A stretch of 64,000 nucleotides of DNA from a bacterium (GCA_021815205.1 JAKAHD010000001.1:25247-89246); one strand, 5' to 3'; shown: positions 27,512-31,558, numbered from the stretch's first letter. Numbers and translations: made by a program. The notes: generated by a model from the sequence alone, not told the origin.

Positions 27512-27585
27512 ATTTATTTTACATTACTAACTTGTGTGACGATCGTCACATAAGTTAGTAATGTAGTAATAGAGAAAACGAGTAT

Positions 27586-27620: not shown

Positions 27621-28490
27621 ATTGTCGGCACATCGTAAGCGGGATTCTGTTTTGTCCCCCGCATGAATTTATGCGGGGGATGAAGCGATAATTCATCTGG
27701 GCCCTCGATTACTCTCGGGCTCAAGCCCTTCGACGCTGCTCGGGGCTATGCGGCACTTTGCCAATGTTACGCATTGGCCGCGGAAATACGCGGACTTCAC
27801 GCAGAACAACATAGAAAAATTTCCGCGCTCTTCCGCGTCAGTTCGGCGAACTTCCGCGGTCAGTGCGTAACACTGACAACACGACCTTGCACCCTGTAAG
27901 GATTTAGCCGTTTCATCTCCGCGTTTCCATCCCTATTGCGGAGCTGGACCAACTAGCTTGGGATTGGGTCCCTCCGGTCCTTTCGGACCGGAGCGTTTCT
28001 GCTCGCACCTCTAAGGTTTCCCTCGACGGCTGTTAGCCGCTACATTTTGCCACTGCTCCGCAGTGGCCGCGGACTGCGCTGACTTTACGCTGACTACGCG
28101 GAATATTCTGCGTGTGTCCGCGTGCTGTCTGCGACTTTCTGCGGTCATTGCGAAGCAATGACAGGGTGTCCCGACTTTCCTCCCCCCACCACTTTTGATG
28201 TCTTACCTGATACTTTTTACAATTCGCTTTCTTAATTCGGAGTATGAATTTTTGAACTGTTTCAATCTTCTTTCTCGGATTATCGCGTCGGATTTATCCC
28301 GATAGGCCTCATAGTAGATCAATACAAAAGGCTTTCTTGATTTGATCGATTTATTGGCGCCGCCATTATGCTCTCCTAATCTTCTTTTCAGGTCTTCGGT
28401 ATACCCGATATACAGGTCTCTGTCTCGTTCACTTTTTAAAACATAGACATAAAACATCAAAAGTGGTGGGGGGCTATCGCTTGATGTACC
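27620..28490 (-). ncRNA. rnpB: RNase P RNA, bacterial type A, with expanded helices and a ~290-nt insertion (the GIY-YIG ORF) at P3
   Basis: The minus-strand reading contains the universally conserved blocks. The P4 5' strand is GGAGGAAAGUCGGGAC, against E. coli GAGGAAAGUCCGGGCU. GGCUAACAGCCGUCGAGGGAAACC and GGUGCGAGCAGAAACGCUCC correspond to the conserved GGUAACGCC...GGGAAACC and GUGCAACAGAAA blocks. GGGAUGGAAACGCGG corresponds to GGGUGAAAGGGUGCGG. GGCUAAAUCC...GGGUGCAAGGUCG corresponds to GGUAAACUCCACCCGGAGCAAGGCC. The 3' region GGGCUUGAGCCCGAGAGUAAUCGAGGGCCCAGAUGAAUUAUCG...ACAAAACAGAAUCCCGCUUACGAUG matches E. coli GCUUGAGCCAGUGAGCGAUUGCUGGCCUAGAUGAAUGACUG...ACAGAACCCGGCUUAUCGG. The upstream promoter is TTGACA-16-TAGAAT. 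The ends are approximate. Confidence 0.65.
28203..28460 (-). CDS. GIY-YIG nuclease-family protein (UPF0213/YhbQ-like, 85 aa) nested within rnpB
   Basis: YVYVLKSERDRDLYIGYTEDLKRRLGEHNGG gives a clear GIY-YIG motif. The ORF exactly fills the loop closed by 19-bp perfect inverted repeats CCCCCCACCACTTTTGATG (28182-28200) and CATCAAAAGTGGTGGGGGG (28456-28474). The TTG/ATG start lies within the repeat arm. Confidence 0.8.
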   Translation of the reverse strand: MMFYVYVLKSERDRDLYIGYTEDLKRRLGEHNGGANKSIKSRKPFVLIYYEAYRDKSDAIIRERRLKQFKNSYSELRKRIVKSIR

Positions 28491-28496
28491 GCGGTC

Positions 28497-28524
28497 ATTC
28501 TAGGTTATTTGAATATTTTGTCAA
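28497..28524 (-). promoter_or_regulatory. Sigma70-type promoter for rnpB (TTGACA - 16 nt - TAGAAT on the minus strand)
   Basis: A consensus -35 and near-consensus -10 lie about 7 nt upstream of the predicted P1 5' strand GGUACAUC. Confidence 0.55.
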
Positions 28525-28556
28525 TTGTCGTTACTATGAGGAGCGGATAGAAAAAT

Positions 28557-28629
28557 GCCACCTTAGCTCAGCTGGTAGAGCAATGCTTTCGTAAAGCATG
28601 GGTCCCGAGTTCGAGTCTCGGAGGTGGCT
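28557..28629 (+). tRNA. tRNA-Thr (anticodon CGU)
   Basis: Cloverleaf with acceptor stem GCCACCU/AGGUGGC, anticodon stem-loop AUGCU-UUCGUAA-AGCAU and T-arm GGGTC-CCGAGTTCGAGT-CTCGG. CCA is not encoded. Confidence 0.85.
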
Positions 28630-28645
28630 CAGAACTTCATATTCG

Positions 28646-28791
28646 GTAAACCCCAACGTGGCGATCATCTCCGTTCTTGCGGGCGCAGGAGGACTTGTCC
28701 TTCGAAGCCTTATTCTTAATCCAAGAAAACTAATATGTTATCGGTAAACCCCAACGTGGCGATCATCTCCGTTCTTGCGGGCGCAGGAGGA
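28646..28791 (+). repeat. 49-bp direct duplication (GGTAAACCCCAACGTGGCGATCATCTCCGTTCTTGCGGGCGCAGGAGGA) at 28646-28694 and 28742-28790
   Basis: The second copy encodes residues VNPNVAIISVLAGAGG of the truncated RF2. The first copy is out of frame, in the tRNA-Thr/prfB spacer. Confidence 0.9.
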
Positions 28792-29433
28792 GACGATGCG
28801 AAGGACTGGGCGAATAGGCTCCTCCGGATGTACTCGCGCTATGCGGATTTGAGGCATTGGAAGCTCCAGGCGGTAAACGATACGACGATAGAGCTTCGGG
28901 GCGAAGGGGCCTATGAGTGTTTAAAGGATGAGTCCGGCGTACATCGCCTGGTGCGTATCTCGCCCTTCGACGCGAAGAAGCTGCGGCACACTTCGTTCGC
29001 CTTGGTCGAAGTACTCCCCGAATTACCCGCGAATGATGCGGCGCACATCCAGATTCCTGAAAAGGATTTGAAGGTGGAGTTCTCCCGTGCGGGAGGGCCC
29101 GGCGGACAGAATGTGAACAAGGTAGAAACCGCGGTGCGGGTGACGCACCTGCCGACGGGGCTCGTGACATCATCGCGCGCCGAGCGGTCGCAGGCCTCGA
29201 ATCGCGAGAAAGCCCTGAATCTCCTGAAGGCAAAACTCGTGAAGCTCATGGAGGAGAAGCATGAGAAAGAAATCTCGAACCTGCGAACCCGCGTCGCTCC
29301 GGAGTGGGGGCATGAGATTCGTTCCTATGTACTCCATCCCTATAAGCAGATAAAGGATCACAGAACGGGACAGAAGATAAGCAGGGTGGAGGAAGTATTA
29401 GAAGGAAATCTAGATTTGTTAAATGCCAAATAA
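28735..29433 (+). CDS. prfB: Peptide chain release factor 2 lacking N-terminal domain 1 (domains 2-4 only); possibly truncated or pseudogenised
   Basis: The SPF codon-recognition motif (RISPFD), the GGQ motif (GGPGGQNVNKVETAVRVTHLPTGLV) and the AGAGGDDAKDWANRLLRMY block are all present. The product is only 232 aa, about 110-130 residues short of a normal RF2. No frameshift site or N-terminal coding sequence lies upstream. Confidence 0.75.
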   Translation: MLSVNPNVAIISVLAGAGGDDAKDWANRLLRMYSRYADLRHWKLQAVNDTTIELRGEGAYECLKDESGVHRLVRISPFDAKKLRHTSFALVEVLPELPANDAAHIQIPEKDLKVEFSRAGGPGGQNVNKVETAVRVTHLPTGLVTSSRAERSQASNREKALNLLKAKLVKLMEEKHEKEISNLRTRVAPEWGHEIRSYVLHPYKQIKDHRTGQKISRVEEVLEGNLDLLNAK

Positions 29434-29640
29434 CAAATTCCAAATCAATGACTAAATCCGAAACACGAAATCCGAGATTCGAAACAATGATCAAAAGCGA
29501 GAAAAAACCGAATGCCCCAAACGCGTGTTTCTAATTTCTGAAATTCGTATTTAGGATTTGTTTCGCATTTTGATATTCGGATTTCGAATTTGATTGGACG
29601 TTTGACATTTGGATTTTGGCATTCATCCAGTACACTCTGT
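29434..29640. repeat. AT-rich family F tract (AAATCCGAAA iterations, AAACGCGTGTTT palindrome, GAAATTCGTATTTAGGATTTG)
   Basis: Shares the GAAATTCGTAT/TTAGGATTTG/ACGCGT core with 17650-17730 and 18186-18240. It contains a TTGACA-like -35 box upstream of ftsE. Confidence 0.55.
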
Positions 29641-29706: not shown

Positions 29707-30390
29707 ATGATCATTTTTCAGAACGTTTCGAAGAACTATAATCACAACTCCGTTGCTTTGGACAAGGTAAGCTTCAAGATCCAGCCGAACGAGTTCGTGA
29801 CTTTCGTGGGCCGTTCGGGAGCGGGGAAGTCCACCGTGGTAAAATTATTGATAGGAGAAGAGAAGCCCTCGAAGGGACAGATCTTCTTCGGCGCGTATGA
29901 GGTGAACAAACTGAAGCCCTCCGAGCTTCCCGAATTCAGGAGGCATATCGGCGTTATTTTCCAGGATTTCAGACTGCTCTCGAAGAAGAATGCATTTGAG
30001 AATGTGGCGTTCGCGCTCGAGGTTGAAGGAAGGTTTCAAAAAGAGATCAATGAACTTGTGCCCCAAGTGCTTGATATGGTGGGGCTCAAGGAGAAGATGT
30101 TCAACTATCCGACGGAGCTCTCGGGAGGCGAGAAACAGCGGGTCGCGATCGCGCGGGCGATGATCAATCAGCCGGATGTGCTTATTGCCGACGAGCCGAC
30201 GGGGAATCTCGATCCCTTCAACACATGGGAGGTGATCAAGCTCTTGAAGAAGATCAACGAATTGGGGAGCACGGTGATCCTTGCGACGCACGACAAAGAG
30301 ATTGTAAACACCCTTGGGGAACGGGTCGTCACGCTTGAGAACGGCCAGGTTGTGAAAGATGAAGCGCATGGAAGATTTCTCATTGATTAA
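29707..30390 (+). CDS. ftsE: Cell-division ABC ATPase FtsE
   Basis: Walker A GRSGAGKST, signature LSGGEKQRVAIARA and Walker B LIADEPTGNLD. The start is at the internal Met (MIIFQNV). Confidence 0.9.
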   Translation: MIIFQNVSKNYNHNSVALDKVSFKIQPNEFVTFVGRSGAGKSTVVKLLIGEEKPSKGQIFFGAYEVNKLKPSELPEFRRHIGVIFQDFRLLSKKNAFENVAFALEVEGRFQKEINELVPQVLDMVGLKEKMFNYPTELSGGEKQRVAIARAMINQPDVLIADEPTGNLDPFNTWEVIKLLKKINELGSTVILATHDKEIVNTLGERVVTLENGQVVKDEAHGRFLID

Positions 30391-30394
30391 TATG

Positions 30395-30652
30395 CTACGA
30401 AATACGAATTGTATACGAATATACGAATACGGACTCATAGCCCATAATTTGCAACGCAATGGGCAATTTCGTATATTCGTAATGAAGATACCGCACCGCA
30501 CGCGGTGCGGTATCGGAATTCATCCGAAGCCAACCCTCCTTCGTCCGCCTCGAGCGGACTACGGAAGGGTTCTCCTTCGCCCTCCATCCTCATCGCACGC
30601 GACGGAGGTATTCGGGCGAAGGAGAATAAATTCGTAATTCGTAGAGAAATTC
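30395..30652. mobile_element. MITE-like repeat family C copy 4 (258 bp; same TIRs, carrying a nested 12-bp-stem palindrome ATACCGCACCGCACGCGGTGCGGTAT and GC-rich hairpins)
   Basis: Inserted in the ftsE-ftsX spacer. The right TIR ends at the ATG of ftsX. Confidence 0.8.
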
Positions 30653-31558
30653 ATGGTGACATTATTTCGAATTCTAAAATACGGATGGCAGAGTTTCTTA
30701 AGGAATGGATGGCTTTCTTTCTCGACGATCGGCATCATGATCTTGGCGCTTCTTGTATTTGAGGGGCTCATTCTCTTCAATGTAGTGAGTAAGGGTGCGG
30801 TGCAGGCGATCCAGGAGAAGGTTGATATCAGCGTGTACTTCAAGAGTAACGTGCCTGAAGACACGATTCTCAATCTGAAAAAATCTCTCGAAGGATTGGA
30901 TGAGGTGAAGTACGTCGAGTATATTTCGAAGGATCAGGCGCTCGCGGATTTCAAGGCGCGCCACGCGAACGAAGCTACAATCACCCAGACGCTCGCGGAA
31001 CTCAACACCAATCCGCTTCTCGCGTCGTTGAACATCAAGGCGAAGGATTTGCATCACTATGATTCCATAGCCCGGTATCTCGAGAAGCCGGATTTCAAGG
31101 ATATCACCGAGAAGATCACCTACGCGCAGAATCAGGTGGTAATCGATCGTCTTACCTCCCTGATCGACAACTTCCAGCGGGGCGGTTTTGCGCTCACGCT
31201 CTTCCTCGCGTTTCTTGCCGTGATGGTGACGTTTAACACGATACGGCTCGCCATCTTTTCGAATCGGGAACAGATCGGCATCATGCGGCTCGTGGGTGCC
31301 TCAAACAACTTCATTCGAGGTCCGTATGTAATTGAGGGAATTTTATACGGTATCATCGCGGCGGCGGTGAGTTTTCTCATCTTTATCCCTCTTATTGGGG
31401 TCGTTTCCCCAAGCATTGCGAGTTTTGTTCCCGAGGTCGATCTTGCGGGCTATTTTAGCGCGCATTTCATGCTGGTGCTTTTCTACCAGATGCTTTTCGG
31501 GGTGGTCTTGGGAATCGTCTCGAGCGTGGTAGCTACCCGCCATTATCTCAACGTATAG
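30653..31558 (+). CDS. ftsX: Cell-division permease-like protein FtsX
   Basis: Four-TM FtsX topology with a large first periplasmic loop. Conserved C-terminal block (IGIMRLVGASNNFIRGPYVIEG). Confidence 0.85.
   Translation: MVTLFRILKYGWQSFLRNGWLSFSTIGIMILALLVFEGLILFNVVSKGAVQAIQEKVDISVYFKSNVPEDTILNLKKSLEGLDEVKYVEYISKDQALADFKARHANEATITQTLAELNTNPLLASLNIKAKDLHHYDSIARYLEKPDFKDITEKITYAQNQVVIDRLTSLIDNFQRGGFALTLFLAFLAVMVTFNTIRLAIFSNREQIGIMRLVGASNNFIRGPYVIEGILYGIIAAAVSFLIFIPLIGVVSPSIASFVPEVDLAGYFSAHFMLVLFYQMLFGVVLGIVSSVVATRHYLNV

Follow-up and report, generated by a model that had tools for sequence, protein, structure and literature searches.

Domain 1 is the least conserved domain of the release factors (PMC1586002). 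It binds RF3 and is required for stimulating nucleotide exchange on RF3, and it is dispensable for codon recognition and peptidyl-tRNA hydrolysis, an N-terminally truncated RF1 being able to work in vivo (PMC1586002). In addition, prfC is non-essential and is missing from small-genome bacteria (PMC1586002). So far, the debate on the need for domain 1 in vivo has drawn on engineered E. coli truncations and on the atypical PrfH. In the full-text literature, no description was found of a naturally domain-1-less release factor 2 (RF2) in the candidate phyla radiation (CPR), Patescibacteria, or Parcubacteria, which is no proof of novelty. In the present study, a stretch of 64,000 nucleotides of bacterial DNA (GCA_021815205.1, JAKAHD010000001.1:25247-89246), called here the window and taken from a MEGAHIT metagenome assembly, was analysed at and around its prfB gene. 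This gene encodes an RF2 that has no domain 1, and a direct repeat of the start of the gene lies between it and the tRNA-Thr gene upstream. Taken as a whole, it is likely that this is a working domain-1-less RF2, that domain 1 was lost through an ancient in-place deletion in a clade, and that the duplication is a separate, recent, and private event. The gene and its two catalytic and decoding motifs are as follows.

28735..29433, plus strand: prfB, an RF2 of domains 2, 3, and 4 only, 232 amino acids (aa), ATG start (Pfam, TIGR00020, phmmer, AlphaFold2)
28960..28968, plus strand: SPF codon-recognition motif, S76-P77-F78 (sequence; alignment)
29101..29109, plus strand: GGQ peptidyl-tRNA hydrolysis motif, G123-G124-Q125 (sequence; alignment)

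By its sequence, motifs, fold, and genomic position, the 232 aa open reading frame (ORF) is an RF2 from which domain 1 and the frameshift site have gone. The RF-1 domain of Pfam is complete (E 3.6e-36) and the PCRF profile is matched at positions 101-194 of 194 only, with the TIGR00020 prfB profile matched at positions 116-346 of 353 (293.4 bits). The protein is nearer to RF2 than to RF1, scoring 293 bits with the prfB model versus 194 bits with the prfA model, and by phmmer its best PDB matches are RF2 (E 4e-59), those to RF1 being no better than E 3e-46. Residues 6-228 align to residues 124-355 of a solved 366 aa RF2, the ORF beginning at the equivalent of RF2 residue ~120. No domain 1 precedes this point, as PCRF is matched from position 101 on and the reading frame is closed by an in-frame TAA 18 nt 5′ of the ATG. 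Within the motifs, S76 and P77 of SPF are invariant over the 35 sequences of alignment A1, of which 30 came from the best 120 short homologues described below, and GGQ (residues 123-125) is likewise invariant in this alignment. There is no CTTTGA in 28600-29433, hence no +1 frameshift site, and the ORF has no internal stop. The AlphaFold2 model of the protein (pLDDT 84, pTM 0.79) resembles the free closed RF2 structures 2ihr and 1gqe (T. thermophilus and E. coli), with Foldseek TM(query) of 0.79-0.82 and probability 1.00. These results bear out an earlier note on this DNA, made from the sequence alone, which had described an ORF starting near RF2 residue 120 that retains SPF and GGQ, lacks the N-terminal domain, and has no programmed frameshift site.

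Two other identities were considered for the protein and rejected. The PrfH model (RF-H, TIGR03072) gives 81 bits against a cut-off of 166.65, the SPF motif is intact, and there is no rtcB partner, the upstream neighbour being a tRNA. The ArfB model (NF006718) gives 53 bits against a cut-off of 100, with residues 103-136 alone matching, and full domains 2 and 4 are present.

The short form is shared well beyond the window. Homologues were sought among 5.8 billion proteins, and the best 120 matches are all 221-278 aa in length, with 71-91% identity and a start in common; their source names, where given, are Jorgensenbacteria, Brennerbacteria, Paceibacterota, Minisyncoccia, and 'Patescibacteria group'. 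The earlier note had suggested that prfB length be compared in relatives, and this comparison found only short proteins among these best matches. In the alignment of 30 short homologues the conserved start is M-x-x-N-P-N-[IV]-x-x-[IV]-S-V-L-A-G-A-G-G-D-D-A-K-D-W-A (in letters, M-x-x-N-P-N...AGAGGDDAKDWA). The few longer homologues have extensions of no more than 25 residues, some of these extensions being recognizably translated tRNA. The ratio of non-synonymous to synonymous substitution (dN/dS) for prfB is 0.03-0.07 versus five relatives, with synonymous sites near saturation. The use of UGA as a stop codon, which the earlier note had also proposed to check, was counted in the window: of the 52 ORFs that reach 120 aa, 15 end in UGA, among them the 1074 aa dnaE (17 end in TAG and 20 in TAA), and RF2 activity is therefore needed. 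On these sequence comparisons, the short prfB is a conserved, selected form in a clade of ultrasmall Parcubacteria and not a lesion.

The surroundings of prfB allow comparison with relatives in which the gene is full-length. Its upstream neighbours are tRNA-Thr, rnpB, and rnhB, and the flanking features used here are the following.

28509..28537, plus strand: putative tRNA-Thr/prfB promoter, TTGAAT-17 nt-TACTAT (read from the sequence)
28557..28630, plus strand: tRNA-Thr, anticodon CGU (ARAGORN; Rfam tRNA 66.3 bits)
29707..31558, plus strand: ftsE (ABC ATPase) and ftsX, conserved downstream neighbours (gene calls of locus L001 and Pfam matches)

In a library clustered at 50% identity, the nearest relatives beyond the short group are the full-length RF2 proteins P0121 and P0122 (337-347 aa, 59-61% identity). 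A species-level scan gave a short gene in locus L004 (229 aa, 70% identity) and full-length genes in L005 (62%) and L007 (54%), and a search seeded with P0121 placed full-length sisters in Wolfebacteria, Liptonbacteria, and other Paceibacterota. The order prfB-ftsE-ftsX is found in short-form loci (the window, L003, L084, L088, and L090) and also in full-length loci (the P0122 contig, L093, and L095). Likewise, tRNA-Thr(CGU) lies 5′ of prfB in L002, L003, L004, L084, L086, L088, L090, L091, and L093, and among these it stands just upstream of a full-length gene in L091/L092 and L093. The spacing is close in both forms: in L091 the ATG of a 347 aa full-length ORF is 4 nt past the tRNA, and the gap from the tRNA to the short ORF is 3 nt in L090 (228 aa), 18 nt in L003, and -1 nt in L004, a one-base overlap. 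In L004 the ORF start overlaps the encoded CCA of the tRNA-Thr(CGU).

Because the tRNA-Thr–prfB–ftsE–ftsX slot is shared with full-length sisters, domain 1 appears to have been deleted in situ, long ago; and as tRNA-Thr already precedes the full-length prfB in L091, the truncation is ancient and clade-wide. Most simply, the domain 1 segment would have been deleted in place, the tRNA marking an upstream limit that did not move. Domain 1 would have gone with the 5′ third of prfB, in an ancestor shared by the clade of Jorgensenbacteria, Brennerbacteria, and their relatives. The autoregulatory +1 frameshift site would have been lost too, and the gene would have stayed directly 3′ of tRNA-Thr(CGU). 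The canonical +1 frameshift is kept in the sisters L093 (~1363-1440) and L095 (~1385-1470), in which ORF1 is followed by CTT TGA C or CTT TGA G. In P0121 the frameshift has been lost and domain 1 kept, and in the short clade both have been lost.

Gradual erosion of domain 1 was also considered. Public gene calls for prfB of the L093/L095 type start past the frameshift site and give spuriously short proteins of 287-330 aa. These lengths are a gene-calling artefact of the +1 frameshift, therefore there is no evidence for gradual erosion from such intermediates and the candidate was rejected.

Between the tRNA and prfB, the window carries a feature that these relatives do not have, made up of two copies of a repeat and a spacer.

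28643..28693, plus strand: upstream copy of the 51 bp repeat, a non-coding relic of prfB codons 3-19, 100% identical to 28741-28791
28694..28734, plus strand: unique spacer, the present prfB 5′ leader, unmatched elsewhere in the window and among 90 fetched loci
28741..28791, plus strand: coding (downstream) copy of the 51 bp repeat, codons 3-19, exact repeat

The repeat is direct and exact over 51 bp (28643-28693 and 28741-28791), with 47 bp between the copies and a start-to-start spacing of 98 bp. As 98 mod 3 is 2, the upstream copy is not in the prfB reading frame but in the +2 frame. It begins 13 nt past tRNA-Thr, after a 12 nt trailer, and the 47 bp inter-copy segment ends in ATGTTA. With the edge marked by a slash, the left edge of the upstream copy reads ...ATAT/TCGG, versus ...ATATGTTA/TCGG at the coding copy. 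From the tRNA to codon 3 there is no ATG to serve as a start codon for the upstream copy, the only one being the prfB start at 28735. By simple arithmetic, the chance expectation of an exact 51-mer repeat within 3 kb is ~1e-24. The earlier note had reported a copy of codons 4-20, 49 bp long and 48 bp upstream, out of frame and right after tRNA-Thr. The copy is real, is out of frame, and does follow directly on the tRNA-Thr(CGU), but it is 51 bp in length, is separated by 47 bp, and spans codons 3-19.

Over the same 51 nt there are 0/51 differences between the window copies versus 16-17/51 between the window and its closest relatives, and the duplication is therefore very recent relative to species divergence. 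It is absent in L002 (91% protein identity) and L003 (85%), and in other relatives the tRNA-prfB junction is either too short for it or without a shared repeat; in all, eight sequenced relatives are without it. The sequences compared indicate that the duplication is young, private to the population, and unrelated to the ancient loss of domain 1.

This bears on the explanation that the earlier note had put first, namely that a recent rearrangement at the tRNA/rnpB/GIY-YIG locus decapitated prfB. On this view the duplication would mark the rearrangement, and prfB would survive as a pseudogene or emergency remnant. A repeat of the prfB 5′ end exactly at the truncation point, beside a tRNA and a GIY-YIG ORF, is what such a lesion might leave. 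However, the short form with the same start is present in the best 120 homologues, and dN/dS is as low as given above. The relatives examined share the short form without the duplication, which is the outcome that the earlier note had named as refuting a lesion. In addition, tRNA-Thr was already 5′ of the full-length prfB in L091, and the GIY-YIG insertion, found in this genome only, is within rnpB and away from the prfB junction. A recent lesion is therefore highly improbable. The other explanation in that note, a lineage that naturally uses a domain-1-less RF2, is the one that fits the short homologues with their common start, the purifying selection, and the orthologous locus.

The duplication could also be an artefact of assembly, such as a strain-mixture chimera in the de Bruijn graph, given that this is a MEGAHIT metagenome assembly and that the repeat is short. 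However, the junction of copy and spacer, and the 47 bp spacer itself, are unique and must exist in reads at k=141. In addition, ENA contig k141_2924797 carries an identical stretch of 6.7 kb with the repeat in it, and MEGAHIT assembles without scaffolding. This contig has 14.8 kb 5′ of prfB versus 28.7 kb in the window, coordinates that are incompatible with its being the source, and the window is therefore from another contig. Nine contigs encode exactly the prfB protein of the window. The junction and a 32-mer of the repeat were not found in JGI metagenomes, a collection from which the species itself is absent. An assembly artefact is unlikely.

As to how the duplication arose, a 98 bp segment, consisting of the copy of codons 3-19 and 47 bp of unique sequence, would have come to lie between the tRNA and the start codon. 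The upstream copy is a non-coding relic, and its sole evident effect is that the prfB AUG now stands 104 nt behind the tRNA instead of 0-18 nt. The spacer has no second copy in the window or the 90 fetched loci and is therefore not a repeated element. There is no convincing tRNA-like remnant at the duplication. A longer tandem unit, also taking in the 3′ part of the tRNA and the leader, was considered and rejected, as the similarity beyond the 51 bp is equalled or exceeded in 411 of 5000 shuffles. Likewise, a structured leader or attenuator was rejected, the 200 nt leader folding no better than shuffled sequence (z = +0.9).

The same junction has taken up other sequences in the clade. A methyltransferase-like ORF in L002, an ORF of unidentified product in L084, and an MBL-fold ORF in L088 are inserted between tRNA and prfB; they are unrelated, start 0-1 nt past the tRNA, and push prfB downstream. 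In L086 (2330-2500), a 130 bp insert between tRNA-Thr and prfB is flanked by a 16 bp direct repeat of the tRNA 3′ end (AGAGGTGGCTCATAAA). This insert holds T-arm-like hairpins and is possibly a decayed tRNA or a small integrated element. From the sequences, the tRNA/prfB junction is clearly unstable and is a recurrent insertion site in relatives. The 98 bp segment in the window is probably one more product of this instability, and could have come about through illegitimate recombination or template switching or as the footprint of cassette turnover. In the last case, an expression slot after tRNA-Thr would gain and lose genes, and 98 bp would have been left behind. The three unrelated ORFs 0-1 nt past the tRNA in L002, L084, and L088 and the duplicated tRNA 3′ end flanking the L086 insert are in keeping with it. 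However, the cassette-bearing relatives have no flanking repeats of at least 9 nt, the spacer matches none of their cassette ends, and no recombinase or att-like site was identified; cassette turnover is a tentative explanation and on balance a doubtful one. Whichever the mechanism, the duplication is a minor recent structural polymorphism, of interest as a marker of a rearrangement-prone tRNA/gene junction.

An ORF starts 0-4 nt past tRNA-Thr(CGU) in L002 (2126), L084 (2070), L088 (1862), L090 (2501), L091 (1289), and L004 (3001), whether this ORF is prfB in its short or full-length form or one of the three unrelated genes inserted there. Such spacing suggests leaderless mRNAs with tRNA punctuation, and a slot in which insertion recurs. 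Probably, prfB is co-transcribed with tRNA-Thr from the upstream promoter-like block, and tRNA 3′ processing would yield a nearly leaderless mRNA. This block (28509-28537) scores 8/12, which is under the threshold of the promoter scan, and the same block is also kept 5′ of tRNA-Thr in L002 and L003. A wider reading may be offered as speculation, with the odds against it. The 3′ end of tRNA-Thr(CGU) would be a fixed expression slot, from which tRNA processing frees any ORF placed there as a nearly leaderless mRNA, and termination would have been rebuilt on class-I factors that have given up docking on the L11/L7-L12 stalk or RF3. The tRNA boundary would have been the limit up to which domain 1 and the frameshift autoregulation were removed, the duplication and inserted ORFs being traces of continuing turnover. 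If true, this reading predicts a clade without RF3 and possibly with a shortened RF1.

Several points weigh against the account of a working short RF2, clade-wide and with a recent private duplication. The TIGR00020 score of 293.4 bits is below the curated whole-protein cut-off for prfB (370 bits), because domain 1 is missing, and relatives are labelled 'release factor-like' by NCBI. The search for a second release factor gene covered only the 64 kb window, and that for domain 1 the window and seven related loci. The two duplication-bearing contigs may stem from related samples of one study. In addition, neither microhomology nor leader homology outside the 51 bp is significant.

The failed cut-off and the 64 kb searched would both leave room for a split or redundant RF2, in which either a separate small gene supplies domain 1 in trans or the real terminator is another, full-length prfB outside the window. 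In that case the short protein would have an accessory role, for example in rescue, as have PrfH and ArfB, the other domain-1-less release factor homologues. However, the short gene is in the orthologous prfB slot beside ftsEX and has SPF, GGQ, and RF2-level similarity, whereas it falls short of the PrfH and ArfB models (81 versus 167 bits and 53 versus 100 bits). A domain 1 hidden Markov model (HMM), built from five full-length relatives, found nothing in six frames of the window (best E 0.58) and gave no match in seven short-clade loci, with full-length L005 (E 3.6e-10) and L007 (E 6e-5) detected as positive controls. In the window, tblastn with RF2 found no paralogue except the 17-codon upstream copy. 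In L003, L004, and L090 the tRNA borders directly on the ORF and leaves no upstream room for domain 1. Among the matches to full-length P0121 none has a short-clade name, only about a quarter of them being named. A split or redundant RF2 is therefore improbable, and the short protein would seem to be the sole RF2, in keeping with the account of a working domain-1-less factor.

Such a factor would be a UGA/UAA-decoding class-I factor, built of the superdomain that recognizes the codon (domains 2 and 4, with SPF) and of domain 3 with its GGQ. In model bacteria, the counterpart of the lost domain 1 is a helical bundle in contact with the L11/L7-L12 stalk and RF3. Having domains 2-4 with intact SPF and GGQ, the short RF2 should, by analogy, release at UGA and UAA, and do so without RF3-assisted recycling. 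The clade is predicted to be without RF3. A clade whose only detectable RF2 lacks domain 1, with UGA still a stop codon, is a natural experiment on the need for domain 1, and leads to testable predictions, namely the absence of prfC, recycling that is independent of RF3, and possibly an altered L11/L7-L12 stalk. Because curated length and score thresholds are missed, the essential short prfB is labelled 'release factor-like' or 'PCRF domain-containing', and pipelines for prfB-based inference of the genetic code could therefore misjudge such genomes. The short RF2 is thus of moderate interest for termination and for reduced translation systems.

Additional features were observed around the gene. 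The intergenic region between prfB and ftsE (29433-29640) contains two nested imperfect inverted repeats with arms of 23-24 nt, 75-78% complementary (29422-29444 with 29601-29623, and 29461-29484 with 29568-29591); no terminator-like site was called in this region. On the other side, rnpB, which the earlier note had correctly placed at this locus, is on the minus strand at ~27621-28490. Its match to Rfam RNaseP_bact_a is 31.7 bits (E 7e-8), below the gathering score of 100 because of insertions. A minus-strand promoter-like site (TTGACA-16-TAGAAT, 28524 to 28497) has 11/12 matches and would drive rnpB, such that 28497-28537 holds divergent and overlapping promoter-like sites, for rnpB on the minus strand and for tRNA-Thr/prfB on the plus strand.

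The apical loop of the rnpB P3 hairpin holds an insertion of ~275 nt (28182-28473, minus strand), where the loop in L003, L002, and L090 is 4-5 nt. The insertion consists of an 18 bp stem extension (a 24 nt inverted repeat, 96% complementary) enclosing an 84/85 aa GIY-YIG ORF, which shares its strand with the ribozyme. Unless it is processed out, a protein-coding insert would therefore be part of the RNase P transcript. To our knowledge, there is no described case of a GIY-YIG ORF in the P3 loop of RNase P RNA. Two more expansions of rnpB, at 27740-27890 and 28040-28160, have in common a 31 nt repeat (27754-27784 and 28043-28073, 84% identical), and the first is a hairpin with 60 nt arms (27758-27879). 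The insertions of relatives at these points differ (L002 1790-1930, L003 2700-2840). Between rnhB and the 3′ end of rnpB there is a near-perfect 46 nt palindrome (27520-27565; 23 nt arms, loopless, 96% complementary), which may be a bidirectional terminator or a protein-binding site.

Compared with canonical RF2 (E. coli, T. thermophilus, and B. subtilis; PDB 1gqe, 2ihr, and 9fy1), the short form has 41-46% identity over domains 2-4. It has in common with them SPF, GGQ, the closed-form fold (TM ~0.8), and, in related Parcubacteria, the orthologous slot. It differs in being without domain 1 (~115-120 residues) and without a domain 2 loop of ~10 residues, which P0121 and P0122 also do not have. 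The CUU UGA C +1 site, common but not universal in RF2, is also gone. In its arrangement the locus resembles tRNA-mRNA co-transcripts, which are known from the E. coli thrU-tyrU-glyT-thrT-tufB operon and from mitochondrial tRNA punctuation. The likeness is a tRNA gene directly 5′ of a translation-factor gene; the differences are that in the window the AUG has been displaced 104 nt from the tRNA by the duplication, and that processing is presumed here.

ArfB (YaeJ) and mitochondrial ICT1 are alike in having a GGQ domain that works without domain 1; however, ArfB is ~140 aa, with no codon-recognition domains 2 and 4, and has a basic C-terminal tail instead. PrfH, the partner of RtcB2, is also without domain 1 and has kept GGQ (PMC1586002). 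It differs in its altered codon-recognition region and in always having an upstream rtcB-like gene, whereas the short RF2 has SPF intact and a tRNA upstream. The closest likeness in architecture is to the engineered E. coli RF1 and RF2 truncations of domains 2-4 only (Mora et al., as described in PMC1586002). In that description, these keep codon-specific release and lose only RF3 stimulation, and they are therefore a functional precedent. The engineered truncations are laboratory constructs with slow growth, whereas the short RF2 is natural, fixed in its clade, and under purifying selection.

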